Source: Parcubacteria group bacterium GW2011_GWA2_40_23
Lineage (GTDB): Bacteria > Patescibacteriota > Patescibacteriia > UBA11705 > JABHMO01
Assembly: GCA_000996245.1 (NCBI GenBank)
Contig: LBYP01000002.1
Location: forward strand, 5,352 to 69,351
Length of the DNA: 64,000 nucleotides
Direction: 5' to 3'
In this document: in pieces, positions 1-62,660 of the stretch
Layout of the letters: each line of letters opens with the position of its first letter
Position numbering within the stretch: position 1 is the first letter of the stretch
Made by a program: the position numbers and the translations under genes
Notes under the pieces: model-generated
The model's input: the letters and a program-made list of their open reading frames with translations, nothing else
Databases searched by the model: none
Told to the model about the DNA's origin: nothing

Positions 1-186
1 ATTTGTAAGATCGCAAAAAAACTTTGCTTTGATTAAAGCATTCTCTTGAAAAGCTGTCCCTGTTTCCTCCACATCATCAGTAATACTTAGATCTTCCAAG
101 GATACGGCCTCAATGTTCCAAAGAGCTAAAAACTTTTTGAGTTCTTGAGCTTTTCCGACATTATGTGTTGCGATTACGAGTTTCAT
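1..186 (-). CDS. rdgB: RdgB/HAM1-family non-canonical purine NTP pyrophosphatase, N-terminal 62 codons (gene continues past left edge)
   Basis: Own translation of reverse strand from ATG at 186-184: MKLVIATHNVGKAQELKKFLALWNIEAVSLEDLSITDDVEETGTAFQENALIKAKFF, the conserved ATxNxGKxxE / ETGxTFxENA N-terminus of this family. Missing from ORF track because truncated. TAGAAT (rc of 195-200) lies 8 nt upstream of the ATG. Confidence 0.75.
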   Translation of the reverse strand, partial: MKLVIATHNVGKAQELKKFLALWNIEAVSLEDLSITDDVEETGTAFQENALIKAKFFCDLTN

Positions 187-216
187 ATATAAATATTCTA
201 CAAACAAACAAATCAA

Positions 217-251
217 CCCTGCACTATAAAGTGTGCCCTTTAAGTACAGGG
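217..251. repeat. GC hairpin of a dispersed intergenic family (CCCyGCAC ... GGG followed by CAAG)
   Basis: CCCTGCAC (217-224) / GTACAGGG (244-251) imperfect inverted repeat followed by CAAG. Related hairpins at 2185, 6080, 22277, 29586. Confidence 0.45.
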
Positions 252-298
252 CAAGCAAAGCAAACAATTATGCAAAAAGTCCTTTGACCATTCTTAGC

Positions 299-344
299 TA
301 ATCATAGTAATCACTTGGTAATCATGCTAATTATAGTCAATCAG
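299..344 (-). repeat. Phased array of five ATGATTA-like heptamers (plus strand TAATCAT), 9-11 bp period, abutting the T-tract of the unit A1 terminator
   Basis: taatcat 299, taatcac 308, taatcat 319, taattat 328, caatcag 338. The reverse-strand reading TGATTGACTATAATTAGCATGATTA matches 21/25 nt of the array at 18662-18696. Confidence 0.6.
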
Positions 345-347
345 AGT

Positions 348-385
348 AAAAAAAGGAGGGTCGACGCACTGTAGCATCGACCCTC
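348..385 (-). terminator. Intrinsic terminator of unit A1
   Basis: Reverse strand: GAGGGTCGA-N12-TCGACCCTC (9-bp perfect stem) followed by CTTTTTTT. Confidence 0.75.
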
Positions 386-979
386 GTGAACATGTCTTTA
401 CCACCGCGACCTTGACGGGCTTGCGATCAGAACAGCCCCGATCTTGGTCCGGCATGGATCCTCGGGGAACCGGCGTCCCATAGATACTGGGACGCGATGG
501 AGCTACGTGAACCAGCTCGGATACCGCTTGCACATGGCAAGTTCTCCTTCTGCTGTGGCCGCGAGCGTGGTGCTCGTTCTTCGGCCTCGTTCTTGCTCCA
601 GAACCGAGTTCGTGTGGCACGTCGCGAGTTGAGCTCTCGCAGCGTGCCGTCAGAAGCCGAAGATGAGCGTACCGGAGTGGAGCCGCATGAAGCCTCCGTC
701 TGCGGAATTCTCGCATCCAATTTCGAACTTCGAACCGTGTTGATCTCTTGTTGCTTGGTGAACAGCCTGTTGCACTCGGTGTTCCGCGGACTTGCTCGAT
801 GAACACAGTCTACAACAAATGAGTTCTGCGGACTTGTCCTACACGGGCGGGGGACGTGCTCTGAGCATGCGCACCTCCATGTTGTGGAACCTTGAGAACC
901 AACGTGGTGTTGATGGCCAGAAGCCGATATTCGAACGAACGCGGCTTCTTTCTCGCTAACACCACAAAAGCGAGACGAT
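348..979 (-). ncRNA. Unit A1: ~630-nt GC-rich transcript without a credible long ORF (candidate structured RNA, or decayed/scrambled coding cassette)
   Basis: Bounded by promoter 986-1014 and terminator 348-385. Many local helices, e.g. GCGTCCCA-N7-TGGGACGC at 473-495, and GGCACG/CGTGCC with nested GCGAG/CTCGC at 616-648. No frame shows the G/C third-position bias of the coding islands. The longest ORF (327-806) is Arg-rich and reads through the terminator. GGAGG (878-874) + 5 nt + ATG (868) opens only a 9-codon ORF, MLRARPPPV. Confidence 0.45.
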
Positions 980-985
980 AAAAAT

Positions 986-1014
986 ATCCTATACTATTTA
1001 TAAACTAATGTCAA
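986..1014 (-). promoter_or_regulatory. Sigma70-type promoter of unit A1
   Basis: Reverse strand TTGACA (1014-1009), 17-nt spacer ttagtttataaatagta, TAGGAT (991-986). Confidence 0.6.
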
Positions 1015-1028
1015 GTTTTTGGCAAAGG

Positions 1029-1056
1029 AAAAAGCGGTCGAGATGAGTCGAACCGC
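1029..1056 (-). terminator. Intrinsic terminator of unit A2
   Basis: Reverse strand GCGGTTCGA-N6-TCGACCGC (one bulged base) followed by TTTTTCC. Confidence 0.65.
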
Positions 1057-1267
1057 TTCTGGATTACTTGCTCGCCACGCCGTGGCACGCCGCTTCGAGG
1101 GAATCCAACCCCGGAAAAGCCTGTCTGTGGTAAACACTAAGGGGCCTTTCGACCTTAGTGCTCTGGACACTCTTCCATAGATCCTCCATGGTGTTTGTGC
1201 GTGCGCGAATCGTGACCGAACAGGATCTCTGCGTTGCTTCGCCGTTGATACGGCTTGGCAGTCCAGC
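1029..1267 (-). ncRNA. Unit A2: ~240-nt GC-rich transcript (candidate sRNA; a 41-codon small ORF cannot be excluded)
   Basis: Promoter 1274-1302 and terminator 1029-1056. Helices include CACTAAGG-N10-CCTTAGTG (1135-1160). GGAGG (1187-1183) + 4 nt + ATG (1178) opens a 7-codon ORF, MEECPEH. An SD-less 41-codon ORF (ATG 1189 to TAA 1064, MEDLWKSVQSTKVERPLSVYHRQAFPGLDSLEAACHGVASK) ends just before the terminator stem. Confidence 0.45.
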
Positions 1268-1273
1268 ATGTAT

Positions 1274-1302
1274 ATAATAGCACAATAATAAAATTATGTC
1301 AA
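1274..1302 (-). promoter_or_regulatory. Sigma70-type promoter of unit A2
   Basis: Reverse strand TTGACA (1302-1297), 17-nt spacer taattttattattgtgc, TATTAT (1279-1274). Confidence 0.7.
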
Positions 1303-1342
1303 TAGCAGTTTTACTTATTTTTGAAAATAGTCTAATTTAAGC

Positions 1343-1379
1343 AAAAAAAGAAGGGGTACCGCGTGAGCAAATACCCCTT
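1343..1379 (-). terminator. Intrinsic terminator of unit A3
   Basis: Reverse strand AAGGGGTA-N13-TACCCCTT followed by CTTTTTTTGC. Confidence 0.75.
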
Positions 1380-1447
1380 AGAACCGTGCCACCATTACAG
1401 TGGCGAGATCATGGTGTCCTCCAGTAATGGGGAAGACTAAAGTGACT
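1343..1447 (-). ncRNA. Unit A3: ~100-nt GC-rich transcript (candidate sRNA / leader-peptide RNA)
   Basis: Promoter 1450-1478 and terminator 1343-1379. Two mutually exclusive helices: CCATTAC..GTAATGG versus GCCAC-N7-GTGGC. GGAGG (1422-1418) + 5 nt + ATG (1412) opens a 5-codon ORF, MISPL (stop 1397-1395). Confidence 0.45.
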
Positions 1448-1449
1448 AC

Positions 1450-1478
1450 ATTATTACATAAAACAGCTTATATGTCAA
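1450..1478 (-). promoter_or_regulatory. Sigma70-type promoter of unit A3
   Basis: Reverse strand TTGACA (1478-1473), 17-nt spacer tataagctgttttatgt, AATAAT (1455-1450). Confidence 0.6.
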
Positions 1479-1533
1479 TAGTTAAGCCTGAGAAATAGAC
1501 AAAATCGTCTGATTTTAGTATAATTTACATAAT

Positions 1534-2175
1534 ATGCTTTACATTGTAGCCACACCTATTGGAAACCTCGAAGACATTACTTTTAGAGCTTTAAGAACGC
1601 TTAAGGAGGTGGATGTCATCTTGTGTGAAGATACAAGACAGACCATGAAGCTTTTGTCCCATTTTCAGTTTTCAAAGCATCTGATTTCTTTGCATCAGCA
1701 CACCTCGGACGAAAAGATGTTAGCTCTCTTAAAACAGTATGAAAATATTGCTTATGTAAGTGATGCAGGCACCCCAGGAATTTCTGACCCAGGAAATAAG
1801 TTAGTCGCTAAAGCGGTTGAATTGAATCTTCCGGTTTGTCCAATTCCAGGAGTTGCTGCCGTGACGACTGCACTTAGCATTTCTGGTTTTCAAACAGATC
1901 ATTTTATGTTTTTGGGTTTTATGCCCCTGCGCGGGCGAACCAAAATATTTAATTTAATCAAAGATTCTGATGTGACTATCGCATTTTACGAATCACCACA
2001 TCGAATAATCAAAACACTCGAAGCATTAAAGCCAATCGTGGGGAATCGCTTATTCTGCGTTTGTCGAGAACTGACTAAAAAGTTCGAAACTATTTACCGC
2101 GGAACTGTCGACGAGGTGCTTCCCGAAATATCTAAAAAAGTAAAAGGTGAATTTACAATTATTATAAGTAAATAA
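1534..2175 (+). CDS. rsmI: 16S rRNA (cytidine1402-2'-O)-methyltransferase RsmI (short form, 213 aa)
   Basis: N-terminus MLYIVATPIGNLEDITFRALRTLKEVDVILCEDTR is the RsmI/tetrapyrrole-methylase-fold signature. TATAAT at 1519-1524 lies 9 nt before the ATG, with no SD. Confidence 0.85.
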   Translation: MLYIVATPIGNLEDITFRALRTLKEVDVILCEDTRQTMKLLSHFQFSKHLISLHQHTSDEKMLALLKQYENIAYVSDAGTPGISDPGNKLVAKAVELNLPVCPIPGVAAVTTALSISGFQTDHFMFLGFMPLRGRTKIFNLIKDSDVTIAFYESPHRIIKTLEALKPIVGNRLFCVCRELTKKFETIYRGTVDEVLPEISKKVKGEFTIIISK

Positions 2176-2184
2176 GCTCGTAAG

Positions 2185-2229
2185 CCCCGCACCACAAACT
2201 GCCTTTGGGTGCAGGGTAAACGAGATAAG
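2185..2229. repeat. 45-bp repeat copy 1 (hairpin CCCCGCACC-N14-GGTGCAGGG plus TAAACGAGATAAG)
   Basis: Exact reverse complement of 6067-6111. The adjacent segment TAAGTGAAATAAGC...AAACTTATCTCGCTA is also shared (direct orientation) with 6032-6131. Confidence 0.85.
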
Positions 2230-2295
2230 TGAAATAAGCTAATTCAAGGTTTACTTAGCACTTAACTTGCTTAAAACTTATCTCGCTAGAAAAAT

Positions 2296-3807
2296 ATGGA
2301 AAAATATTACATAACAACACCTATTTATTACGCTAATAGCAAGCCACATATTGGTCATGCTTATACGACGATAGTGGCCGATATTTTAGCGCGATATTAT
2401 CGTTTAAAATTAGGACAAGAAAATGTTTGGTTTTTAACGGGGACAGATGAACATGGTTCAAAAATTGCGCAGGTTGCAGAAAAAGAAGGCAAAGATCCTC
2501 AAACTTTTGTTGATGATGTTTCAGCTCTTTTTCAGTTGTCTTGGAAAAATTTGAATATTAGTAATAACGATTATATTCGCACGACAGAAAAAAGACATGA
2601 AGACGTCGTCACTGAGATCCTCACGAAATTGAAATCAGCTAAAACTCCACTTGGCAATGACTTTATTTATTCTGGTGATTATGAGGGTTTATATTGTGTC
2701 GGTTGTGAATCATACAAAAAGCCTGAAGATTTGGTAGACGATAAATGTCCAGATCATAACAAAGAACCAGAATTGCTTAAAGAAAGTAATTGGTATATTC
2801 GTTTGTCAGATTATGCCGAGATACTCAAAAATAAAATTCAAAACGATGAAATAAAAGTTTTGCCAGCCGATCGTAAAACAGAAGTTTTGTCATTTATCGA
2901 ACAAGGTTTGGAGGATGTGGCCATTAGTCGTCAACAAGTTAAATGGGGCATACCGGTACCATTCGACAAAGATCAAACTATATACGTTTGGGTCGATGCT
3001 CTTCTAAACTATATCTCAGCACTTGGTTATCCAAATGACGAAAAGTTTAAAAAATTTTGGCCAGCAAACACTCAACTCTTGGCAAAAGATATTTTAAAGT
3101 TTCATGCCATCATTTGGCCAGCGATGCTCATTGCGGCCGGCATCGAGGCACCCAAAGAACTTTTTATCCATGGTTATTTCACTATTGATGGTAAGAAAAT
3201 GAGTAAAACTATTGGTAATGTTATTGATCCAAATGATTTAGTCTCTGAGTTCGGAGTTGACGCCGCACGCTATTTAATCGTTTCACAATTTCCATTTGGA
3301 CAAGACGGTGACGTCAAAGCTGATGAATTTAAAGTAAAATATAATTCTGATCTTGCTAATGGTATCGGTAATTTAGTTAGTCGTGTAATTACGATGGCTG
3401 AAAAGTATTGCGATAATAAAATTCCAGCATTGAAATATACTGGCACTTTTAATTTAACCGCACTTTGGAAAAGAGTGGAACAAAATTATGTAGATTATAA
3501 GATTTTTGAGAACCTTAGAGAAATTCAAGAATTAATTAGCTGGGCTGACAATCATATTGCCGAAACTACGCCTTGGGCCAAGGCTAAAGAAGGGAAGGCA
3601 GCAGAAGTAAACCAAATCCTTTATAATTTAATTGAAGTCCTGAAACAACTTGCGGGGTTATTACTTCCGATACTTCCACAAACCGGAGCAGAGATTCTTA
3701 AACGTATAAATTTTGCTTCTACTGATATAGAATCAATTAAAACACTGAATAATCTCGACTCAAAAAAAACATTAGATAAAGGTGAGCCTTTATTCCTTAG
3801 AAAGTAG
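2296..3807 (+). CDS. metG: Methionyl-tRNA synthetase
   Basis: HIGH-type motif PHIGHAYT and KMSKS-type motif KMSKT. Length and N-terminus are typical of MetRS. Confidence 0.95.
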   Translation: MEKYYITTPIYYANSKPHIGHAYTTIVADILARYYRLKLGQENVWFLTGTDEHGSKIAQVAEKEGKDPQTFVDDVSALFQLSWKNLNISNNDYIRTTEKRHEDVVTEILTKLKSAKTPLGNDFIYSGDYEGLYCVGCESYKKPEDLVDDKCPDHNKEPELLKESNWYIRLSDYAEILKNKIQNDEIKVLPADRKTEVLSFIEQGLEDVAISRQQVKWGIPVPFDKDQTIYVWVDALLNYISALGYPNDEKFKKFWPANTQLLAKDILKFHAIIWPAMLIAAGIEAPKELFIHGYFTIDGKKMSKTIGNVIDPNDLVSEFGVDAARYLIVSQFPFGQDGDVKADEFKVKYNSDLANGIGNLVSRVITMAEKYCDNKIPALKYTGTFNLTALWKRVEQNYVDYKIFENLREIQELISWADNHIAETTPWAKAKEGKAAEVNQILYNLIEVLKQLAGLLLPILPQTGAEILKRINFASTDIESIKTLNNLDSKKTLDKGEPLFLRK

Positions 3808-3863
3808 TAATTTGCTTTTTTGTTTTCTTGCTTTTTTGATTATCGTTAAATAATTTTCTAAAT

Positions 3864-4706
3864 ATGATAGACACTCATGCCCATGTTAATTTTAGCACCT
3901 TTAAAGATGATGCTGATGCAGTAATTCAATCAGCTTTAGATAAAAAAATTGCTATTATTAATGTTGGGTCGCAAATCAGCACTAGTCGTCGTGCCGTCGA
4001 GTTGGCCGCTAAGTATCCTCGTGTGTTTGCAGCTATTGGTTTACATCCGATTCAATTACAGGATGAAGAAGTAATTGAGGAGGGAATCACTTTCACTACA
4101 CGGAAAGAAGAGTTTAACTACTCAACATACAAAGAGTTGGCTAAACAGAAACATGTCATCGCTATTGGTGAGACTGGTTTGGATTATTACCATATTCAAG
4201 AAAGGCCTGAATTTAAAGAGATTGTTGAAGATCAGAAGAAAGTTTTTCATCAACATATAGATTTGGCAAATGAAATGAAATTGCCCATGATCATTCATAC
4301 CCGAAGTGGTAAAAATAATAGTGATGCGGCGTGCATCGATATTCTCTCGGAGTTAAGAAAAAATAAACCTAAATATGGTGGAGTTATGCATTGCTATGCT
4401 GGTCCGCCTGAATTGATTAAGGATTTTGTGGCCCTGGATATGTATATTAGTTTTAACGGTATTTTAACTTTTGATAAAACGGGACTCATCGAAAAAATCT
4501 TGTTCTCAACACCCGAAGATCGAATTCTAACTGAAACCGATTGTCCTTATCTAACTCCTGCGCCATATAGAGGCAAACGTAATGAACCGGCCTATGTGGA
4601 TTTTGTAGTTTCTAAAATCGCTGAACTAAAAAATCGTGAATTTGCTGAAATTGATCTTTTAACGACCAGAAACGCAGAACGACTTTTTCATATCGCTTTA
4701 CAATAG
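3864..4706 (+). CDS. tatD: TatD-family metal-dependent hydrolase/DNase
   Basis: MIDTHAHVNF N-terminal HxH metal motif, GETGLDYY, ~280 aa. Confidence 0.85.
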   Translation: MIDTHAHVNFSTFKDDADAVIQSALDKKIAIINVGSQISTSRRAVELAAKYPRVFAAIGLHPIQLQDEEVIEEGITFTTRKEEFNYSTYKELAKQKHVIAIGETGLDYYHIQERPEFKEIVEDQKKVFHQHIDLANEMKLPMIIHTRSGKNNSDAACIDILSELRKNKPKYGGVMHCYAGPPELIKDFVALDMYISFNGILTFDKTGLIEKILFSTPEDRILTETDCPYLTPAPYRGKRNEPAYVDFVVSKIAELKNREFAEIDLLTTRNAERLFHIALQ

Positions 4707-9104: not shown

Positions 9105-9118
9105 GGTTTGTCATGCAT

Positions 9119-9160
9119 CATACATCATGTAACACTTTGATACAGGTTACATGATACATG
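9119..9160 (+). other. Long hairpin in the 112-nt atpA-atpG spacer
   Basis: CATACATCATGTAAC-N12-GTTACATGATACATG (10 bp perfect plus 3 bp after a 2-nt mismatch), with no T-tract. Possible processing/stability element. Confidence 0.4.
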
Positions 9161-9216
9161 CCGGAGTTAAGCAGTAATTCGTAACATCATTATAAATGTA
9201 CTATTCGTAAAACAAT

Positions 9217-13666: not shown

Positions 13667-13705
13667 TATGGCAATTGAACCTGTGCTACAACGATGGAGG
13701 AATCC

Positions 13706-13990
13706 ATGGATCTGATCGGATTGGACATGAAGGCTCGTCAGGCTCGGGAGAAGTTCACGGTCGTGACCAAGCTGGGTGATGCGGTCTGGACGCCGGCGGA
13801 GATCAACCGACTGGTGCACCAGTACAGAACCATCATCAGCACGCTTCCCAGGATGCCCTCCGTCGCGATTCTCGCGGGAGAGTACTCCAAGGACCAGCTC
13901 GTCGCGTTCCTCGGGACGGACAACTTCACCGTCGAGCTGATGGTCGGTCGCCAGAACCCCAAGCTGCCGTTCAGCGCTCCGATGCTCTGA
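13706..13990 (+). CDS. Island B1: 94-aa GC-rich protein of unknown function, paralog of B2
   Basis: GGAGGA ends 4 nt before ATG 13706. G/C-ending codons dominate. About 45% identity to B2 over ~67 aa (KFTVVT..G..VW..E..RL....PR..SVAI.AGE.SK...V..LGTD.F.VEL.V). Confidence 0.7.
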   Translation: MDLIGLDMKARQAREKFTVVTKLGDAVWTPAEINRLVHQYRTIISTLPRMPSVAILAGEYSKDQLVAFLGTDNFTVELMVGRQNPKLPFSAPML

Positions 13991-14020
13991 GCGCGGCAAG
14001 TTCGAAAGAGAGGAACGGAC

Positions 14021-14248
14021 ATGCTGGTTCTGTTGACTCCTGCCAAGTTCACCGTCGTGACCTTGTTCGGTTTTGGGGTGTGGCATAAGGACGAGGTTCA
14101 ACGTCTGGCGAACAGGCTGAGAGCCTGCGTCTACACGTATCCAAGGAGGCTTTCGGTCGCGATCATCGCGGGAGAGCACTCCAAGGCTTCGATCGTGGAC
14201 GTCCTCGGTACGGACGACTTCGGCGTCGAGCTGAAGGTCAAGTGCTAG
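14021..14248 (+). CDS. Island B2: 75-aa GC-rich protein, paralog of B1
   Basis: AGAGAGGAA SD-like motif 5-6 nt before ATG 14021; same conserved blocks as B1; followed directly by terminators. Confidence 0.7.
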   Translation: MLVLLTPAKFTVVTLFGFGVWHKDEVQRLANRLRACVYTYPRRLSVAIIAGEHSKASIVDVLGTDDFGVELKVKC

Positions 14249-14282
14249 AAACCAGTCACTCAAGGTTTCAAGAGGCGAGCAG

Positions 14283-17337: not shown

Positions 17338-17370
17338 AAAAAGGGCCACGCAAACTTGTGTCTGCGTGGC
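17335..17370 (-). terminator. Terminator of island C (also sits directly after the helicase stop)
   Basis: Reverse strand GCCACGCA-N10-TGCGTGGC followed by CCCTTTTTTTT. The T-tract is present only in the minus orientation. Confidence 0.7.
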
Positions 17371-17396
17371 TCCTTGCGACGAGTTGTGACTCGGCG

Positions 17397-18377
17397 CTAG
17401 TTGGTGAGCACGTGGCTGATGTCCATGTCCGGACTGACGATCAGCTTCTGTGCCGTGTTCTCGCCGATGACCTCGATCGCCTCGTTCGGACCCGTACCCA
17501 GGTTCGGGATGAACCCGATCTGGATGTACGAGTACTGCTCGAGGGGATCGACGTCGCAGCGCACGTCGAAGGCCGTCGTGGTGCCCTTGGGTAGGAAGAT
17601 GTCCGTCAGGTCATGGAAGACGAGCTGCGCGTTCCATCCCTCGGTGTTTACGTAGGGTTGACCCTGGTAGGCCAGGGTGTGGCCACCCGAGATCAGGCTG
17701 CAGTTGCGCACCTTCTCGAAGTGGTCCCCGGTCATCATCATCGACAGCGTGACCTCGGTGAGAACGCCGTCCTCGGCGTAGGCCGTGTCTTCGGCGTCGA
17801 CCATCAGGTAGAACGTGAACAAGTGGACCTGCGAACCTTCGACGAGCAGGTTGCTGGTTTCCTTCTTCCAGACCATGACGGTCGAGAATTGCGGCTCCAT
17901 GTACGGCGCGCAGACTTCTTCGACGGAGCAGTAGAACGTACGGTTGCCCCTGGCGATGGCGTCGTAGAAGGCTTGGAAGTTGCTGTGCCAGACGTTCATC
18001 ATCGCGATCTGCTTCTGCGCCGCGATCCGTCGCAGCTTGTAGGTCGGGATCATGGCGATGGGGTATTTGGGGTCTCCCGCCAAGGCCAGCTTGATCTTCC
18101 AGGTGTTGGTCGTCGCGTTCTGCGTCGCCTTGGCCAGGAACTGGCCCTCGTACTGGAAGTAGTAGCTGATGTTGTCGGTGAAGTTGGTCCACCCGACGCA
18201 GTCGGTGCCGTACCAGTCCGGCAACTGGCCGGTCAGGTTGAAGTAGTCGATGCTTTCCTGGTTGTACGTCTCGGCGACGTACTTGAGGTCGGCGAAGGTC
18301 TGGGGCGGACCGCCCCCGGCGTACGCGGCACTCGAGAAGCACAGGACGGCGAGCAGGGCGATGAGGGTCTTCTTCAT
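17397..18377 (-). CDS. Island C: secreted 326-aa GC-rich protein of unknown function
   Basis: Signal peptide MKKTLIALLAVLCFSSAAYA. GGAGGA lies 7 nt before the ATG. Near-exclusive NNC/NNG codon usage (checked codon by codon). Several Cys residues; no motif I can name. Confidence 0.8.
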   Translation of the reverse strand: MKKTLIALLAVLCFSSAAYAGGGPPQTFADLKYVAETYNQESIDYFNLTGQLPDWYGTDCVGWTNFTDNISYYFQYEGQFLAKATQNATTNTWKIKLALAGDPKYPIAMIPTYKLRRIAAQKQIAMMNVWHSNFQAFYDAIARGNRTFYCSVEEVCAPYMEPQFSTVMVWKKETSNLLVEGSQVHLFTFYLMVDAEDTAYAEDGVLTEVTLSMMMTGDHFEKVRNCSLISGGHTLAYQGQPYVNTEGWNAQLVFHDLTDIFLPKGTTTAFDVRCDVDPLEQYSYIQIGFIPNLGTGPNEAIEVIGENTAQKLIVSPDMDISHVLTN

Positions 18378-18447
18378 CTCGGATTCCTCCTTCGGACGTT
18401 TCGAACCTTAGATCGATGGTGTACATCACCAATCTCTCTTTGGCACC

Positions 18448-18476
18448 ATTCTAGCATGTTTTTAATAAATTGTCAA
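18448..18476 (-). promoter_or_regulatory. Sigma70-type promoter of island C
   Basis: Reverse strand TTGACA (18476-18471), 17-nt spacer atttattaaaaacatgc, TAGAAT (18453-18448); ~64-nt leader. Confidence 0.7.
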
Positions 18477-18499
18477 ACCTATTTTCATCGTTTTGCGAG

Positions 18500-18520
18500 C
18501 CTGCCTGCCGGCCAGGCAGG
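18500..18520. other. Isolated GC hairpin ~25 nt upstream of the island C -35 box
   Basis: CCTGCCTG-ccggc-CAGGCAGG, 8-bp perfect stem, no T-tract on either strand. Confidence 0.4.
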
Positions 18521-18661
18521 GAGCACTTTCGTTAAAAAGCGACGTGGCAATCTCTAATTCGATTTCTAATTAATCAAATCAATAGGTTATACATTTTTAT
18601 TCGTAAATTTAGCAAAATACTAGATACTGTCTAAGCGAACCTAACTGCAAATCGAGGATAC

Positions 18662-18696
18662 TAATCATGATAATCATGAAAATCATAGTTAATCAT
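18662..18696 (-). repeat. Phased array of four ATGATTA-like heptamers abutting the island D terminator
   Basis: taatcat at 18662, 18671, 18690 and aaatcat at 18680 (period 9-10 bp). Homologous to the array at 299-344. Confidence 0.6.
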
Positions 18697-18699
18697 GGC

Positions 18700-18735
18700 A
18701 AAAAAGAGCCCCACCGTTCGCGACGAACGGTGGGG
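18700..18735 (-). terminator. Intrinsic terminator of island D
   Basis: Reverse strand CCCCACCGTTCG-tcg-CGAACGGTGGGG (12-bp perfect stem) followed by CTCTTTTTT. Confidence 0.8.
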
Positions 18736-18740
18736 CAGGG

Positions 18741-19364
18741 CTAGAAGTTCCAGACCAGGCGCAGGTACAGCACGTGGTCACCCGCGATCTCCGGCGTGAA
18801 GTCGTAGGCGACCCAGATTCGGCCCGCGCCGAGCAAGATCGAGGGGCCGATGGCCGCCTCGTCGAACGTCTTCTCGGAGAAGAAGTTCTCCTGGACGATG
18901 CCGAACCCAGCGATGTTGCCTGGCTTCATCCAGTCGAGGGTGGTCAGCGTGTAGTAGTTCCGCTGCACGTGCCCCTTGTCGCCGTCGACAGGGAAGTAGA
19001 CGTCGCCCTCGACGCACAGGAGCAGGTCGCTTGGCAAGGGCTGCGTGAGCCAGATGCTCGCGAGAGCGGACATGCCGCCGTCGTTGGTCATCCAGAGACC
19101 TCCCAGGAGCTTGAGGTTCGTCTTCGTCGACAGGACGCTCATCTCCGGCCCGAAGTAGCCGAAGATCATGGAGTTGCCGCGCATTGACACCAGGCCGGTG
19201 GCGTGGGCGTAGATGCCGCCCGTGATGTTCTCGCTGAGCGTGAACGGGGAGAAGGTTCGGCCCAGGGTGACCAGGAACTGGCCGTTGGACTCGACCTTGG
19301 CCTCGGCGGCCGTGGGGATGATCATCGCACACAGCAACAGGATCACGAGCAGGAAGCGCTTCAT
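18741..19364 (-). CDS. Island D: 207-aa secreted protein with outer-membrane beta-barrel-like features
   Basis: Start placed at MKRF (ATG 19364) with GGAGG 5 nt upstream. Signal peptide MKRFLLVILLLCAMIIPTAAEA. Gly/aromatic-rich alternating pattern. C-terminus YLRLVWNF has hydrophobic residues at positions -1, -3, -5, -7 and a terminal Phe (classical OMP beta-signal). Confidence 0.7.
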   Translation of the reverse strand: MKRFLLVILLLCAMIIPTAAEAKVESNGQFLVTLGRTFSPFTLSENITGGIYAHATGLVSMRGNSMIFGYFGPEMSVLSTKTNLKLLGGLWMTNDGGMSALASIWLTQPLPSDLLLCVEGDVYFPVDGDKGHVQRNYYTLTTLDWMKPGNIAGFGIVQENFFSEKTFDEAAIGPSILLGAGRIWVAYDFTPEIAGDHVLYLRLVWNF

Positions 19365-19409
19365 CGAAGCCTCCAAAGTGGTGTGACGTCCCGTGAAACA
19401 GGACATTCT

Positions 19410-19437
19410 AATTTATCATAAATAATAAAAAAGTCAA
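19410..19437 (-). promoter_or_regulatory. Promoter of island D
   Basis: Reverse strand TTGACT (19437-19432), 16-nt spacer, TGaTAAATT extended -10 (hexamer 19415-19410). The -35 box ends 1 nt from the ATG of the divergent host gene at 19439. Confidence 0.55.
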
Positions 19438-19765: not shown

Positions 19766-19797
19766 GAAGTGATGGCCTTTCCATCAAGGAGGTTCCC

Positions 19798-20115
19798 ATG
19801 GATGCACGACAAAAGGTCGTGGCAGTGTTCGATCTTCCGCACGGTGAAGGTCAGGTCGATCTGATGGTCGACATGGCACTTGAGTCCAGCTGGACTGGCC
19901 AAGGAATCGATACTTCGTACTTCATGTTCCACAAGCCGCACTGCGGCGGTCCCATGCGGCCGATCAAGGTGGCGGACAAGAAGATGGTTCTGTACTGCAG
20001 CGGTTGCGTGTTGCGTCTTCAGCTTCTGATCATGAAACTGCCTACGAACCTGGGCGAACTCGGTGAAGCGATCAACGAGACCTGCACGCATTCGGATCTG
20101 CCCTCACGTTTCTAA
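19798..20115 (+). CDS. Island E: 105-aa GC-rich protein with Zn-ribbon-like Cys/His spacing
   Basis: AAGGAGG lies 5 nt before the ATG. HKPHCGGP ... YCSGC (H/C-x..-CxxC). G/C-ending codons. Confidence 0.7.
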   Translation: MDARQKVVAVFDLPHGEGQVDLMVDMALESSWTGQGIDTSYFMFHKPHCGGPMRPIKVADKKMVLYCSGCVLRLQLLIMKLPTNLGELGEAINETCTHSDLPSRF

Positions 20116-20127
20116 TCGAGATAATAT

Positions 20128-20162
20128 CAGGCCTTCCTAGCACTAGGAGGCCTGGTTTTTTA
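20128..20162 (+). terminator. Intrinsic terminator of island E
   Basis: CAGGCCTTCCTAG-ca-CTAGGAGGCCTG (one bulge) followed by GTTTTTTAT. Confidence 0.75.
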
Positions 20163-29566: not shown

Positions 29567-29639
29567 GTCACCATGAGTTTACTTGCCCAGCACCCAAACG
29601 TAGTGAGTGGTGCTGGGCCGAAGGGTGACATTTTGTTTC
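29567..29639 (+). terminator. Compound hairpin terminator of lysS containing a family GC hairpin
   Basis: Outer stem GTCACC/GGTGAC encloses CCCAGCACC-N14-GGTGCTGGG (29586-29617), followed by ATTTTGTTT. Confidence 0.65.
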
Positions 29640-29640
29640 A

Positions 29641-29679
29641 CAAAATAAACAGCGAGAAATCATTTGAGACGTCCCGCTG
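29641..29679 (-). terminator. Terminator of island F
   Basis: Reverse strand CAGCGGGA-N13-TTCTCGCTG (8 bp including one G-U) followed by TTTATTTTG. Confidence 0.55.
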
Positions 29680-29686
29680 AGTTGGA

Positions 29687-29878
29687 CTAGGCGCGTTGCT
29701 TGACCTTGAGTTGCATGTACAAGGCGATAGGAAAGAAGATCAGCCCGAAGAGTCGGTAGATCAGGAAGTCGCCAGCAGGAACCCCTGAACGTAAGGTTGG
29801 ATCATCTCTGACGAGACTCGCAGCGAAATAACCCCAGAGCAAATTGAGCAGGACGACGGCTACTGCGATAGAAAGCAT
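29687..29878 (-). CDS. Island F: 63-aa GC-rich two-TM membrane peptide
   Basis: GGGGGAGG lies 5 nt before the ATG. Hydrophobic segments are SIAVAVVLLNLLWGYFAASLV and LIYRLFGLIFFPIALYM, with a basic C-terminus KVKQRA. Confidence 0.65.
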   Translation of the reverse strand: MLSIAVAVVLLNLLWGYFAASLVRDDPTLRSGVPAGDFLIYRLFGLIFFPIALYMQLKVKQRA

Positions 29879-29916
29879 TCAAGCCTCCCCCAAAAGATTT
29901 GCGCACCCGAAAGCAT

Positions 29917-33697: not shown

Positions 33698-34678
33698 ATG
33701 CGACGTATGTATAATTCAGATAAGCCTATAATTAAACATATCCCCGACTTCCTCGACTACCTCGAGATTGAAAAAGGTCTGGGAAATAAAACGCAAGAAA
33801 ACTACGCGCGTTTTTTACATCGTTTCTCGGAATGGTTGCAGCAGAACAATCAAGAGAAGCTTCTCCCCCACGAATTAAGCCCGGAGCTCGTTTGGGCTTA
33901 TCGTGTATATTTGTCGCGCGAAACAAAATCTAGAAGAAAGAACGAGGACTTTTTGAAAAAATCAACCCAGAATTATTATTTGATTGCCTTGCGCGGATTA
34001 TTGAATTTTTTCACAGAAAGAGATATTAATGCGATTCCTGGTGAAAAAGTTAAACTGGCTAAAAACTTAAAGGAACATAGCATTCATTTTTTAAATCTTG
34101 ATCAAATTAAACAATTATTAGAAGCTCCTGATATTAAACATACTCCTGGTTTAAGAGATCGAGCCATTCTCGAAAGCCTCTTTTCAACTGGATTACGCGT
34201 AGCTGAGCTGGCTAAATTAAATCGAGAAGATTTTAAAGTAAAAGATGGTGTTGTTTTTTTAGAACTTAATGTCATGGGTAAAGGAAGTCATCCTCGAGTA
34301 GTTTATTTTTCCGAGCGAGCTTTAAACTGGATAAAAGCATATTTAGCAAAGCGTGCAGATATTGACCCTGCCCTCTTTATTAATTATAAGCCAGGAAAAA
34401 ATGAAGTTAATGATCGGCGTTTAACGGTTCGTTCGATTGAAGTAATTGTAAAAAAATATGTAAAAATAGCCGGACTACCACTAACAACAACTCCACATAC
34501 GTTGCGACATTCATATGCCACGGACTTGTTGACACAGGGTGTCGATTTGAGGCTTGTTCAGGAGTTTTTGGGTCATCGAAGTATTTCGACGACTCAAATA
34601 TATACTCACGTGACTAACAAGAATCTGCGTGATGTTTACTTGAAATATCATAGTGGCGCACAAGATAAAAAATATTAA
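33698..34678 (+). CDS. Tyrosine site-specific recombinase, XerC/XerD family
   Basis: C-terminal catalytic motifs HTLRHSYATDLL and LGHRSISTTQIYTHV; N-terminal SAM-like domain. Confidence 0.85.
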   Translation: MRRMYNSDKPIIKHIPDFLDYLEIEKGLGNKTQENYARFLHRFSEWLQQNNQEKLLPHELSPELVWAYRVYLSRETKSRRKNEDFLKKSTQNYYLIALRGLLNFFTERDINAIPGEKVKLAKNLKEHSIHFLNLDQIKQLLEAPDIKHTPGLRDRAILESLFSTGLRVAELAKLNREDFKVKDGVVFLELNVMGKGSHPRVVYFSERALNWIKAYLAKRADIDPALFINYKPGKNEVNDRRLTVRSIEVIVKKYVKIAGLPLTTTPHTLRHSYATDLLTQGVDLRLVQEFLGHRSISTTQIYTHVTNKNLRDVYLKYHSGAQDKKY

Positions 34679-43269: not shown

Positions 43270-43420
43270 TTGTTGTAAATGTTGAAAATGTTTATCCCGC
43301 ATTTTAAGGGCTTGTCATGTAGTTAAAGAGTATACTTTATACTACATGGAACACTTTATAGTGCGGGATTCTAAATGTTCAAATTCTTCCATTACATTGT
43401 AACACAACTGAGCCTAGAAC

Positions 43421-45103: not shown

Positions 45104-45220
45104 TACCTGTTATTCAAGTGTTTACCTTAGCTTTTTGAGGCTGAGTTAATTTCCGCCTTTTAAAGGTGTAGTGAACACCACAAGTGATCTGTTCCCCAAC
45201 CATCCGTGAGGAGGTGCCTG

Positions 45221-46735
45221 ATGCTGTACCAGAAACTGCTCGATGCGAAGATCGGAGTCGGTCCGGCCACCATCACCAAGCTCGACGAGGCGGGTCTCAA
45301 GACCGCCGAGGCCATCCTGGCCGCCGGGCTCGACGGGCTGCGCGCCATCAAGGTCTTCCCGCCGATCGCGGGCAAGATCCTCGAGGTCGCGCTCGCCAAC
45401 CCGACGCCCGCCACCGAGATCGAGGCCGCGTCGGCCCCGATCATCCTCCACCCCGACGACGCGGCCAAGGTGGCCGAGGTCGCCCCCACCACCACGAAAA
45501 ACGAGACCCCCGCGGTCCTGGTCAAGCGGCAGACGGTGTTCGCCGCCAAGCTCGAGGAGGCCGCCAAGGCCAACGGTACGACGGTGGAGGAGCTCCGCGC
45601 CGCCGCCAAGGCCAACGTGCCGGCCGAGAAGCCGGTCGTGGTGACCCACAAGACCCTGGCCAAGCCCGAGAACGAGCACGTGAACTTCATCGACGTCGGG
45701 ATCGAAACCCCGACCGAGTTCACGAGCCCCGTGCGTCTGCGCGACTTCTTCGACAAGCTGCCCAAGGGGCAGGTGCCGGACAGCGCGCGCTACATCAAGA
45801 ACCTCTTCCCCGTCTGCGCGATGTGTCGCGCCGCGGGCAGCACGAAGACCCTCCAGATCGACCACGTGCACGTGCTCGTGGTCACCCGTCTCGACGGCAG
45901 CGTCAACAGCGGTTTGTTCTGCGACGACCACATCACGGTGGCGTACGGACAGGCCAAGGACCTGGTCAAGGACGGGAAGCTGAAGGAGGTCAAGATCATC
46001 TGGCTGCGCGAGGCGTGGGCCAACCTGACCCGCGCGTACAGGGCGCAGGTCGACGAGGCGCGCGAAGAGCGCTACCGCAAGGAGCGCGCCGACCGCCGCA
46101 CGGCCGCCCTCCGGGCCGTGATGGAGGATCTCGGCTCGGTGACCAGCGAGCACTGGATGACCGACGAGCAGCTCGGCAGCTACGTGTCGCCCATGGACGT
46201 CCCGGTCTTCACGTGCGGACTCGAGGCGAAGCAGGCCCGTGAGCTGCACCTCCTGCCCAACGACAAGGAGAAGGGTACGTTCAAGGGGCGCTGGGGGCGG
46301 TTCTACGACGAGTACGGCATCCGGCTCGTCATGCGGCCCCCGCAGGACCTGACCCAGCACAACACGCTCGTCCAGCACTTGCGGGACGACGCCAAGGCCG
46401 CCCAGGCCACGCCGTTCTTCCCCGTCGTCCTGGTCCGCCGTTACTTCGGTGACGACCTGGGCTGGCGCTACCTGGCGATCCACGAACTGGTCATCGAGGA
46501 GTTCGTGGCGACCTACGAGCAGGCGCACAACTTCAAGGTGCGCACCGGGGCCATGGCCTACGAGTGGCTGACCCGTCGCTGGGAGGTCCAGCGCGAAGAA
46601 GCCGCCAAGGCCGCGGCGCAGGCGTTCGCCAAGAGCGACGAAGGCAAGGCGCTGAACGCCTTCCTCAACGCCGCCCCGGACGACGAGGCCGCCGCCGACA
46701 GCGCCCTGTTGGCCGGCAGCGCCCACAAGAAGTAA
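45221..46735 (+). CDS. Island G: 504-aa GC-rich protein with N-terminal helix-hairpin-helix pair and a CxxC..DH..N..CxxH (HNH-like) motif
   Basis: GAGGAGG lies 6 nt before ATG 45221. HhH-like KIGVGPATITKLDEAG and LRAIKVFPPIAGKILE. Cys/His motif VCAMCRAAGSTKTLQIDHVHV...VNSGLFCDDH (nt 45815-45931). Strong G/C third-position bias only in this frame. Confidence 0.75.
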   Translation: MLYQKLLDAKIGVGPATITKLDEAGLKTAEAILAAGLDGLRAIKVFPPIAGKILEVALANPTPATEIEAASAPIILHPDDAAKVAEVAPTTTKNETPAVLVKRQTVFAAKLEEAAKANGTTVEELRAAAKANVPAEKPVVVTHKTLAKPENEHVNFIDVGIETPTEFTSPVRLRDFFDKLPKGQVPDSARYIKNLFPVCAMCRAAGSTKTLQIDHVHVLVVTRLDGSVNSGLFCDDHITVAYGQAKDLVKDGKLKEVKIIWLREAWANLTRAYRAQVDEAREERYRKERADRRTAALRAVMEDLGSVTSEHWMTDEQLGSYVSPMDVPVFTCGLEAKQARELHLLPNDKEKGTFKGRWGRFYDEYGIRLVMRPPQDLTQHNTLVQHLRDDAKAAQATPFFPVVLVRRYFGDDLGWRYLAIHELVIEEFVATYEQAHNFKVRTGAMAYEWLTRRWEVQREEAAKAAAQAFAKSDEGKALNAFLNAAPDDEAAADSALLAGSAHKK

Positions 46736-46757
46736 CGTTCAACAACGTTCGTAGCCG

Positions 46758-46795
46758 CCTCCCGAGGACTCATTTCTCGGGGGGCGCTTTTTTTT
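46758..46795 (+). terminator. Terminator of island G; its T-tract runs into the -35 box of island H
   Basis: CCTCCCGAG-N9-CTCGGGGGG followed by CGCTTTTTTTT. The last Ts are the first bases of TTGACA at 46794. Confidence 0.7.
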
Positions 46796-46822
46796 GACAA
46801 ATATACACCTGAACTCTATGAT
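46794..46822 (+). promoter_or_regulatory. Sigma70-type promoter of island H
   Basis: TTGACA (46794-46799), 17-nt spacer aatatacacctgaactc, TATGAT (46817-46822). Confidence 0.7.
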
Positions 46823-46855
46823 TGTACTAAGTGGTACTGTTCTAAGGAGCGTGGC

Positions 46856-47473
46856 ATGAATGCGAAACATCTTCCTCCGCCCACTCCCACGACGCTCTCC
46901 GAAGCGTTTTGGCCCCTGTTCATGACGAACAAAGTGATGGTGCGTTTTGTCGGTGCGTATATCTGCTTCGGCGTGGCAGATGACAGCAACCGACTACTCG
47001 TAGTGTATGCACACGACACTGCCAGCCGATTGCATCTTCCTACACAGGAAGCAATTGCTCGAGCGTTCCCTCTGCGGAATGCCAAACAACAAGAATACAC
47101 CGGACCACATGATCTGCCAGTGTCGTACAGTGACATTCAACGAGTTCGCAACGTGATGCGTTATGAGTTTCTTCAGGAAAACCGGCGCGTCTTACTGCTT
47201 GTTTCGACTCCTGAGGAGTCGGTAGTTGAAAACCAGGAACAACTCATGTTCATCCAATGGAGTAGACCGAACCCACTTCAAATTGCTCGCATCGTCGAAA
47301 CTATTGGTGCGGATCGTGTCCACGTCGTACGAAAAAATGCGCTGGAAACGCGCCTCCTGGTGGAGTTGAAACCCAATGAACGATTGAAGTTCTCTGTGAC
47401 CGGTTGCCACTTCAGCAGCCCCTTTGCAACTGCGGCTCTGTTGCCGGTGCAGTGCGACACCTGCACTGCTTGA
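46856..47473 (+). CDS. Island H: 205-aa protein of unknown function (intermediate GC)
   Basis: AAGGAG lies 6 nt before the ATG. Bounded by its own promoter and terminator. No recognisable motif. C-terminal Cys pair CDTC. Confidence 0.65.
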   Translation: MNAKHLPPPTPTTLSEAFWPLFMTNKVMVRFVGAYICFGVADDSNRLLVVYAHDTASRLHLPTQEAIARAFPLRNAKQQEYTGPHDLPVSYSDIQRVRNVMRYEFLQENRRVLLLVSTPEESVVENQEQLMFIQWSRPNPLQIARIVETIGADRVHVVRKNALETRLLVELKPNERLKFSVTGCHFSSPFATAALLPVQCDTCTA

Positions 47474-47477
47474 AAAT

Positions 47478-47518
47478 AAGCCAGCCTTGATCCTCGAATC
47501 TTGGCTGGCTTTCTTTTT
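47478..47518. terminator. Terminator after island H, shared with the convergent wecG-NUDIX gene
   Basis: AAGCCAGCC-N16-GGCTGGCTT followed by TCTTTTT; A-rich on the other side. Confidence 0.7.
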
Positions 47519-62318: not shown

Positions 62319-62660
62319 CTACGCAGCTGCAACGATTTTCTTGATTTTTCGACGCAGTTCAATCGCATCGAAAGGCTTGGTGACCACTTCGTCGGGTTGC
62401 TCGGCACAAGAGAAGTGTTCTGGCGGGGCGCTTGAAACCATGATGATGCGAGCATCAGGGCAAAGTCGTCGTGCGTAGACGATGAACTCGGCTCCCGTCA
62501 TTCCAGGCATGTCGTGGTCTGTGACAATGACCCGGGCTGAGCGACCGCTAAGGCATTTTAAGGCCTCGAATGGTGAATGATGCGTTCGGTGTGGCAAAGT
62601 ACCAGCAACAGCCTTGAATAGAGCTAGATTCTCTGGCAGATCATCAACGAAAAGCACCAT
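62319..62660 (-). CDS. Island I: stand-alone CheY-like response-regulator receiver domain (113 aa)
   Basis: VLFVDD acidic pair, VIVTDHDMPGMTG phospho-acceptor Asp context, IIMVSS, TKPF lysine. AGGGAG lies 7 nt before the ATG. GC-rich codons. Confidence 0.8.
   Translation of the reverse strand: MVLFVDDLPENLALFKAVAGTLPHRTHHSPFEALKCLSGRSARVIVTDHDMPGMTGAEFIVYARRLCPDARIIMVSSAPPEHFSCAEQPDEVVTKPFDAIELRRKIKKIVAAA

Follow-up and report, generated by a model that had tools for sequence, protein, structure and literature searches.

The window analysed here, a stretch of 64,000 nucleotides, is a chromosome segment (38% GC) of a CPR bacterium whose RsmI and MetRS are 100% identical to those of Rifle aquifer contigs named Parcubacteria group bacterium GW2011_GWC2... 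and whose closest named relatives, judged by the AddA-like helicase, are Candidatus Kuenenbacteria (64%) and Falkowbacteria. Its housekeeping genes include those for MetRS, the ATP synthase operon, AddA, DciA, ProRS, MreBCD, a PBP, GreA, LysRS, SerRS, Alr, a Xer-like recombinase, GluRS, ClpB and PriA, and the spacers between them hold about ten GC-rich islands (51-65% GC). Most islands come with both a near-consensus sigma-70 promoter of their own and a strong intrinsic terminator, and usually with a GGAGG ribosome-binding site. Each cassette has a TTGACA-17-TATAAT promoter to itself, the island hairpins are ordinary terminators whose stems and loops are unrelated and lack a conserved core, and the island ORFs, for which no Pfam or PHROGs family was found, are all ORFans. 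The cassettes are patchily distributed. Another cis motif shared by these genomes, ATTCGTAA, forms clusters near start codons.

Two short arrays of ATGATTA-like units lie in this segment, both on the minus strand and both in the immediate wake of a terminator. The features at the two loci, all on the minus strand, are as follows.

251-298, minus strand: 'type-1' flank that follows array A1, GCTAAGAATGGTCAAA ... TTTGCTTTGCTTGC
299-344, minus strand: array A1, five phased units, (A)TGATT(A/G) with one TAATTA variant, with ...TGATTACTATGATTAG at its end
356-385, minus strand: intrinsic terminator of the A1 GC island, 12-bp stem and T7; array A1 begins 4 nt past the T-tract
18448-18476, minus strand: consensus promoter of D1 (326-aa gene), TTGACA-17-TAGAAT with TG, 186 nt downstream of array D
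18644-18653, minus strand: 'type-2' flank motif GATTTGCAGT, 7-8 nt past array D
18662-18696, minus strand: array D, four phased units, ATGATTAACT ATGATTTTC ATGATTATC ATGATTAG
18708-18736, minus strand: intrinsic terminator of D2 (221-aa GC-rich gene), 13-bp stem and T6; array D begins 3 nt past the T-tract

Read on the minus strand from 344 to 299, A1 consists of TGATTGACTA TAATTAGCA TGATTACCAAG TGATTACTA TGATTAG, with cores at 338-343, 328-333, 319-324, 308-313 and 299-304, and the cores of array D (minus strand, 18696-18662) lie at 18690-95, 18680-85, 18671-76 and 18662-67. A preliminary description of this DNA had reported that the two arrays agree at 21 of 25 positions and end alike, and upon realignment both the 21/25 identity and the shared end ATGATTAG proved correct. 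The same holds for its count of four to five ATGATTA-like units per array (five in A1, four in array D) and for its statement that the arrays come right after terminators, since only 3-4 nt separate T-tract and array at both window loci. It had attributed the second array to the island D terminator; the array does follow a terminator, but this terminator belongs to D2, and the array sits between two island D cassettes, at the terminator-proximal end of a 225-nt spacer.

The arrays are not chance products of an AT-rich sequence. As a single heptamer ATGATTA is not enriched in the window (19 occurrences found, 17.3 expected), and clusters of at least three TGATTA within 45 nt, sought on both strands of the window, are present solely at A1 and array D. 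In sequences simulated with a first-order Markov model (n = 200) the mean number of such clusters was 0.015 and no run contained two, the number observed. Tandem Repeats Finder independently called A1 and array D as period-9 arrays of 5.3 and 3.9 copies, copy numbers that rank among the highest in the window, and a profile built on the arrays matched A1 with E = 8.5e-15 and array D with E = 8.6e-9 (nhmmer). The profile found nothing in a further 10 kb beyond the right edge of the window, and neither profile nor pattern detected such an array in about 0.5 Mb of other related CPR loci. The arrays are rare, with three in about 90 kb when the array of L055, a metagenome locus that probably belongs to the same genome, is included. 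The proviso of the preliminary description, that arrays frequent in ordinary host spacers would amount to simple low-complexity sequence, does not describe what we found, namely two clusters in the window and none in about 0.5 Mb of relatives, and the homology it had proposed between the two arrays is borne out. Judged by these comparisons, A1 and array D genuinely belong to a small family of repeats that occurs in some groundwater Parcubacteria. Full-text searches of the literature returned no description of these arrays, nor of ATGATTA repeats in CPR.

Members of this family beyond the window were sought in a metagenome scan using a pattern fitted to A1 and array D, which demanded three near-perfect units and is therefore blind to degenerate arrays. 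The scan returned 51 loci, four of which (L046, L055, L056 and L085) clearly carry the same element; most of the matches were unrelated low-complexity or coding repeats, or belonged to a different 'GTCTGAACTGTGATT...' repeat family in non-CPR contigs, and matches other than these four were left out of the evidence. The known set thus comprises six arrays, which represent four independent loci. The relative L046, syntenic with window positions 1-4150 (72-82% nucleotide identity), has 14 units (12+2) in the interval from the orthologous A1 terminator to the start of Ham1, with a four-unit block duplicated as a higher-order repeat. L056 and L085 come from two further low-GC genomes, also with GC-rich cassettes, and share an orthologous locus in which a small GC-rich membrane-protein gene is followed by a terminator, 3 nt and a four-unit array. 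L055 has a 6+4-unit array upstream of a pfkB gene; this array lies 40 nt from a hairpin and T-run, not 2-5 nt, and no GC-rich sequence occurs within 500 nt on either side of it. Because the LepA encoded by L055 is 100% identical to that of GW2011_GWC2_39_14, its array is probably a third array of the window's own genome.

Alignment of the six arrays revealed more than a common heptamer. The last four units align in register across arrays as ...ACTATGATTnnCATGATTAC(n2-5)TGATTAC(T/C)ATGATTAGC, and the module ends in TGATTAC(T/C)ATGATTAG(C). The ordered module reads ...ATGATTACCAAGTGATTACTATGATTAGCTAAGAATGG in window A1, ...ATGATTACGAGGTGATTACTATGATTAGCTTGGGAAATGG in L056 and ...ATGATTACGAGATGATTACTATGATTAGCTTAAGAAAT in L055. 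In some arrays the similarity extends 10-55 nt past the last unit: the type-1 flank is common to A1, L056 and L055 (that of A1 is alignable to the L056 flank, and its first ~20 nt also to that of L055), and the type-2 flank GATTTGCAGT is common to array D and L085. The sites themselves are not orthologous (one precedes Ham1, another separates ORFan cassettes and a third precedes pfkB), and since the same spacer order and flank recur at such sites, the array evidently travels as a sequence module. These alignments show that copies of the module have passed between unrelated loci, with the order of the spacers and some of the flank preserved.

The basic module measures about 35-46 bp and is made of four or five head-to-tail units, each with a (A)TGATT(A) core and a spacer of 2-5 nt (up to 7 in a single case). 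Across 35 units the TGATT core contains one mismatch in 175 cells, compared with 26 non-majority cells out of 58 at the two positions that follow the hexamer (Fisher p = 2e-17), and the spacers (3-7 nt) come in 15 different sequences. The sequence comparison shows that the TGATT core, but not the spacers, is subject to selection or recognition, and an invariant core between variable spacers is what a row of sites recognised by a sequence-specific protein would be expected to show; the invariance could nevertheless reflect in part recent common descent and slippage rather than selection. The 29 intervals between units in the six arrays are 9 bp (17 cases), 10 bp (4), 11 bp (5), 12 bp (2) and 13 bp (1), with a mean of 9.83. 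The preliminary description had equated the period with one helical turn; a spacing of 9-11 bp does apply in the window, but the equation is only approximate given a mode of 9 over 29 intervals. With a modal period of 9 bp, successive units gradually leave a common face of the helix in the course of four or five repeats.

All units share one orientation, being direct repeats, an arrangement that rules out symmetric dimers such as those of Fur, LexA or CRP. The Fur box is a 19-bp palindrome, described alternatively as inverted hexamers or 7-1-7 inverted repeats. By hand count array D matches the Fur consensus GATAATGATAATCATTATC at 14 of 19 positions, yet its units are all direct repeats, and the Fur box was rejected. 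IHF and DnaA boxes were likewise set aside as poor matches to their consensus by eye. A promoter cluster was also considered and rejected: the scan gave a single weak TTGCCA-17-CATGAT (9/12) in array D, and no correctly spaced -35/-10 pair could be made out within the arrays on inspection by hand.

Comparison with relatives revealed that the array comes and goes at conserved positions. At the A locus the window has five units, L046 has 14 and L087, in which A-type islands are present, retains a single unit; L088 and L092 have A-type islands and no array, and L091, the closest relative (92% RsmI identity), has neither A islands nor an array. At the D locus the window has four units, and L095 and L096 have none, though the D2 terminator and the D1 promoter are conserved in both. 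In L096 the near-identical terminator and promoter enclose a different, 165-nt spacer rich in ATTCGTAA motifs, so that the D1 promoter is kept without the array, and in L095 a mere 9 nt separate the D2 terminator from the D1 promoter. L003 and L097 have D2 alone and no array, and about eight other island terminators in the window have none either. At the level of sequence, these comparisons show that the array is gained and lost between close relatives, with copy numbers from 4 to 14 units.

Where present, the array keeps its place relative to the terminator. In five of the six arrays, representing three of the four independent loci, it starts 2-5 nt downstream of the T-tract, in spacers of 150-330 nt; by our own estimate, random placement within the spacers would produce this at three independent loci with a probability of about 1e-4 to 1e-5. 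The distance to the next promoter or start codon drifts, from ~25 to 113 nt in the A1/L046 pair and from 52 to ~250 nt in the L056/L085 pair, in both of which the array remains 2-5 nt from the T-tract. In L085 about 200 nt have been inserted between array and promoter, and although the L056 and L085 regions are only 69% identical overall, both retain the array at the terminator. We conclude that the array goes with the upstream terminator, sharing the orientation of the transcription unit which that terminator closes, and not with the downstream promoter. A head-on orientation to replication, hinted at by the minus-strand position of the arrays, was dropped, as the L085 array lies on the strand with most genes.

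A partner protein was sought in the gene content. Pfam or PHROGs searches of about 55 ORFs from the window and the array-bearing loci yielded no DNA-binding candidate, and neither a binding protein nor a transposase or recombinase emerged as a candidate from the window, its 13.5 kb extensions or the other array loci; the sole recombinase of the window is the Xer-like tyrosine recombinase at 33698-34678, 15 kb from an array. Pfam recognised no BldC- or Xis-like small wHTH ORF in the array-bearing loci and the window, no resolvase, TnpA or TnpB domain was found in the same set, and Rep, Par and DnaA genes are absent from the window and its extensions. No terminal inverted repeats, target-site duplication, second end or inverted partner array were found, so that the argument for mobility draws only on distribution and sequence sharing. 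An origin in phages or plasmids was rejected when the long L046 array gave no blastn match in plasmids and phages, and a viral-contig origin after two pattern scans gave chance or coding matches only.

Taken together, the reading that we tentatively favour, plausible though short of probable, is that the arrays constitute a polar intergenic module of phased, predicted protein-binding sites that would be propagated by copy-and-paste, attached to terminators and adjusted in copy number by slippage.

It is possible, if on balance unlikely, that the units are operator or activator sites through which a transcription factor acts on the downstream promoter. Direct repeats about 10 bp apart with an invariant core would suit such a function, and the arrays are always intergenic, with five of the six preceding a gene in the same orientation. 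In L046 the last unit lies 6 nt ahead of a TATAAT without a recognisable -35, the geometry of an activator-dependent promoter, and the same genomes share other cis motifs, such as the ATTCGTAA clusters near start codons. The pho boxes of PhoB and the F1-F3 sites of OmpR are 7-bp direct repeats with AT-rich spacers and a period of ~10-11 bp, arranged head to tail in runs of two to six, and CtsR heptad repeats are a further parallel among operator arrays. The L046 array resembles OmpR/PhoB sites in abutting a -10 that lacks a -35. However, pho boxes stand at a fixed distance from the -10, whereas the promoter distance of the arrays is not conserved and orthologous promoters are found without an array. 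Set beside the 10-11 bp period of OmpR/PhoB sites, the intervals of the arrays are mostly 9 bp but include 10 and 11 bp. BldC of Streptomyces binds two to four or more 9-bp head-to-tail repeats with (A/G)ATT cooperatively, as a polar filament (PMC5859096), and the arrays are similar, with a 9-bp mode and GATT in every unit. A C-G pair at position 9 is required by the BldC consensus AATTxxxx(C) (PMC5859096), whereas position 9 in the GATT register of the arrays is T, not C, in the commonest units (GATTACTAT, GATTACCAT). Moreover, BldC sites are found in the promoters that are regulated, not at terminators, and are not known to be copied between loci. Several observations argue against operators of any kind: the distance to promoter or start codon varies from ~25 to ~250 nt while that to the terminator is fixed, close relatives manage without the array at orthologous promoters, the downstream genes are unrelated (Ham1, a secreted ORFan, another ORFan), and spacers and flanks are common to several loci, unlike convergent binding sites. 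Nearby, only a stand-alone receiver-domain protein (62319-62660) is encoded, and no DNA-binding response regulator was seen.

We consider it unlikely that the arrays are a neutral minisatellite, an AT-rich tandem repeat prone to expansion that arose next to T-tracts, was homogenised by slippage or gene conversion and has no binder. The range from 0 to 14 copies at one locus and the duplicated higher-order block of L046 are what such a repeat would produce, and unrelated ATGATTAnn tandem arrays do exist in other phyla (e.g. L070, L086). The trinucleotide before the first unit is also spacer-like, so that the T-tract resembles a degenerate unit. Slippage alone is a poor account, however, since it copies core and spacer equally faithfully, and here the spacers differ in sequence and length while TGATT does not. 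The retention of the array across ~30% flank divergence between L056 and L085 and the occurrence of the same ordered module at unlinked loci also speak against it.

The fixed position next to the terminator raises the question of a terminator backstop or insulator, in which a filament on the array would block read-through polymerase, supercoils or antisense traffic and shield the downstream gene. Sal-box/TTF-I arrays, mTERF sites and the BIMEs that bind gyrase and IHF at operon ends provide parallels. Position and orientation relative to the terminator are kept while the downstream spacing drifts, and the upstream units, which have consensus promoters, are probably highly expressed. From the footprint of polymerase, however, a block 3-5 nt past the T-tract would be predicted to stall the enzyme before the hairpin is complete, and most strong island terminators, as well as the relatives, manage without an array; we regard this function on its own as improbable.

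The preliminary description had taken the arrays as a hint that the GC islands share an end, a landing site or a recombination/partition element, and an end, attachment site or landing pad of GC-rich cassettes is now very improbable and largely refuted. Three of the four independent loci do adjoin GC-rich cassettes, the cassettes are patchy (L091 has no A islands at all), and the architecture resembles the subterminal repeats of IS607-type elements. The same cassettes nonetheless occur without arrays in L088, L092, L095, L096, L003 and L097 and with a single unit in L087, which settles the question, posed in the preliminary description, of whether the array is part of the cassette: D2 and D1 in L095/L096 and the A-type islands in L088/L092 do without it. 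A shared cassette end is further contradicted by the ~8 array-free island terminators of the window and by the L055 array, which has no GC-rich sequence within 500 nt. The cassettes also have their own promoters and their hairpins have no conserved core, and no integrase or transposase but a distant Xer-like gene is available; with no integrase, transposase, Rep or Par gene near either array, a recombination or partition element is not borne out. That array D had been brought in by the D1 cassette, as the Kuenenbacteria relative L003 suggested, was refuted by L095 and L096, in which D2 and D1 are present and the array is not.

Known mobile systems were compared as well. The left end of IS1535, a member of the IS607 family, carries four helically phased 9-bp direct repeats over ~40 bp; a transposase filament starts from such repeats, and elements of this kind lack terminal inverted repeats and target duplications (PMC6188088). 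Ends of this family have some four phased repeats within about 60 bp of the element terminus and a serine-recombinase tnpA alongside, with or without tnpB. The arrays are alike in having four to five polar units over 35-46 bp and no inverted repeats or duplications, but they differ in lacking tnpA/tnpB, a second end and a definable element terminus, and their motif sequence is unrelated. In addition, A1 and array D flank 18 kb of essential genes, unlike IS607 ends. In integrons, IntI is encoded next to attI, and promoterless cassettes end in attC hairpins with conserved cores. An integron attI/attC system was rejected for the window, where the Xer-like recombinase stands alone, the cassettes have their own promoters and the hairpins are ordinary terminators.

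Finally, an RNA-level element, either AUGAUUA repeats in read-through transcripts bound by an RNA-binding protein or a small ORF, is highly unlikely, for although the array RNA is unstructured like TRAP or Rho binding platforms (folding of both strands gave z-scores of +0.4 to -2.1 and just -5 to -12 kcal/mol) and array D reads as an 11-codon ORF (MINYDFHDYHD*), the arrays lie between strong terminators and promoters and should be mostly untranscribed, the frame is not kept in A1 (MITK*), L056 (MITMITR*) or L085, and Rfam gave no match. The Rfam searches covered the window at the gathering threshold and the surroundings of both arrays in E-value mode, with nothing meaningful returned, and no tRNA or tmRNA gene was found in the window.

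How, then, do the arrays relate to described repeat families? The preliminary description had likened them to iterons or multimeric protein sites, and the signature of multimeric sites, an invariant core with variable spacers, is indeed there; as strict iterons they do not qualify. Typical iterons measure 17-22 bp, compared with the 9-10 bp units found here, and stand at a single locus per replicon beside a rep gene, an AT-rich unwinding element or DnaA boxes. The arrays do share with them phased direct repeats with a conserved core. Replicon iterons were rejected because the two window loci, 18 kb apart, and that of L055 all lie among housekeeping genes and show no plasmid or phage similarity. 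REP/BIME elements of enterobacteria are small extragenic modules at 3' ends that bind gyrase or IHF and are patchily distributed. REPs, however, are GC-rich transcribed palindromes that form hairpins, whereas the arrays are AT-rich direct repeats without structure. The nearest analogues in the literature are the heptamer repeats of Beggiatoaceae and cyanobacteria. The cyanobacterial STRR and Beggiatoaceae TAACTGA heptamers are contiguous, with a period of 7. The arrays differ in being spacer-separated (period 9-13 bp), terminator-attached and rare. The heptamers have been described as lineage-restricted, intergenic and patchy, of unknown function, with 2 to >40 copies per set and 169 sets per genome, and are mostly placed just upstream of start codons, where they are proposed to act on RNA (PMC4679880). 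In kind, we regard the arrays as a variant of phased direct-repeat binding arrays or small interspersed repeat elements.

Returning to the terminator-attached, copied module of predicted binding sites, we propose that each unit would be bound by one DNA-binding domain and that the protein would oligomerise head to tail along the array, by analogy with BldC or Xis-type winged-helix proteins, response regulators of the OmpR/PhoB type or the DNA-binding domain of IS607-type transposases. Insertion or recombination, preferentially on the 3' side of terminators, would spread the module, which after landing would expand or contract by slippage. Any effect on neighbouring genes, for example insulation from a strongly transcribed upstream unit, would be secondary. 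A more specific version, in which a module landing specifically 3' of strong intrinsic terminators serves as a dedicated polar, terminator-coupled barrier whose head-to-tail filament insulates neighbouring genes of an extremely compact genome, seems to us decidedly doubtful. If true, it would constitute a bacterial analogue of the eukaryotic Pol I Sal-box/TTF-I or the mitochondrial mTERF arrangement and define a new class of mobile cis elements directed to terminators.

These results correct an attractive but wrong inference, that the array is an end marker of GC-rich cassettes, and leave the cassettes as the more puzzling feature of this genome. To our knowledge, CPR/Patescibacteria have very few recognisable regulators, and we know of almost nothing reported about their cis-regulatory DNA. 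As a ready bait, the array could lead to an as yet uncharacterised DNA-binding protein of an uncultivated phylum. A module that proved mobile would represent a new terminator-targeting element without a recognisable transposase, and its coupling to terminators, if functional, would amount to a novel means of insulating transcription units in tightly packed genomes.

About ten GC-rich cassettes, with a GC content of 51-65%, lie inside spacers of a genome whose own GC content is 36-38%, and most of those in the window carry their own near-consensus promoter, a GGAGG ribosome-binding site and a strong terminator.

Window 345-1450, 13690-14250, 17345-19410, 19790-20150, 29610-29890 and 45150-47510: GC-rich cassettes
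Window 62319-62660, minus strand: stand-alone receiver domain of the response-regulator type (PF00072 in the precomputed annotation for locus L111)

The cassette products of the window are all ORFans, several with signal peptides, and no Pfam or PHROGs family was assigned to any of the cassette ORFs of the window. Distribution among close relatives is patchy: the closest relative (L091) has no A island at all, and two loci that carry the D2 gene (L003 and L097) lack D1, the 326-aa gene of island D. The receiver-domain ORF is likewise GC-rich (53%); it encodes 113 aa and has no DNA-binding domain.

Standardised parts are common to the GC-rich cassettes of two further loci, L056 and L085, where they are placed around paralogous ORFan genes.

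L056 3673-3699 and 4867-4893, L085 2295-2320: shared cassette parts

These parts comprise promoters of the form TTGACA-17-TATAAT, a hairpin in the 5' leader (AAGTCCGCTGTTCGGACAGATCAACTG) and terminators that are nearly identical (CCCTCAACCGG(N)CATCTGGTTGGGGG).

Several other elements recur in the intergenic regions of the window and of the loci compared with it.

Window 9170-9212 and 18599-18606, L096 1296-1445, L085 7680-7727 and 12330-12410, L055 790-830: motif ATTCGTAA(C)/TTACGAAT
Window 18497-18523, L056 3892-3919: GC-rich palindrome GCGAGCCTGCCTGCCGGC(C)AGGCAGG
Window ~205-225 (minus strand) and 43316-43373, L046 504-538 and 4795-4852: imperfect palindrome CACTTTATAGTG(C)(A/G)GG
Window 9105-9165, L055 840-900: CATG-rich element of ~60 nt

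The first, a second recurrent motif in addition to the ATGATTA one, is clustered, occurs in both orientations and often flanks -10-like elements on both sides, directly 5' of start codons; six copies fill the D2-D1 spacer of L096, which in the window holds the ATGATTA array. In appearance the motif resembles an operator for a transcription factor, or else a palindromic, MITE-like element, common to these genomes. The GC-rich palindrome, which is REP-like, is 97% identical over 29 nt between the window copy, located 5' of the D1 promoter, and the L056 copy, located behind a cassette terminator. The imperfect palindrome belongs to a ~58-nt element repeated in L046, is positioned directly 5' of the Ham1 start and of the M23 peptidase gene start, and may be an operator overlapping a -10 element. 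The CATG-rich element lies in the window between the genes for the alpha and gamma subunits of ATP synthase; L055 has it in the opposite orientation, with 79% identity over 90 nt.

ATGATTA-like units also occur outside the CPR arrays.

L047/L052/L072, L050/L082, L063, L068 1269-1371, L076 3057-3243, L081 141-246: GTCTGAAC repeat family
L086 272-531 (and L040): 28-unit ATGATTA(N2-5) array with variable spacers

The former is a different family on non-CPR metagenome contigs, in which GTCTGAAC(T/C)(G/A)TGATT is followed by 3-4 ATGATTA-like units; its members sometimes pair up in inverted orientation at a distance of about 20-50 bp, in MITE-like fashion, or form tandem repeats of 48 bp, and in L047 analogous TAGGATT arrays adjoin the repeat. 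The L086 array begins where a methyltransferase-like gene has its stop codon, and three CAGGATT repeats come after it; the array is either a minisatellite of independent origin or distantly related to the CPR array family.

The A1 island (630 nt), which precedes the first array, has a promoter and a terminator, yet contains no long credible ORF.

Window 350-985, minus strand: A1 GC island, with promoter and terminator
Window 503-535, minus strand: A1 mini-ORF
L046 3624-3823, L087 3308-3340, L088 3356-3583, L092 2706-3038: orthologues

Its folding is unusually strong (z = -5.5), and it has no Rfam match. The island and its orthologues each contain one to three ten-codon mini-ORFs, every one preceded by a Shine-Dalgarno sequence, and the peptide that these mini-ORFs encode is conserved: M-x-(R/K/F)-R-(Y/F)-P-(S/C/T)-(G/W/H)-x-x, ending at a stop codon (for example MCKRYPSWFT). 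The A1 island with its mini-ORFs could represent a family of micropeptides or leader peptides, or alternatively a new ncRNA.
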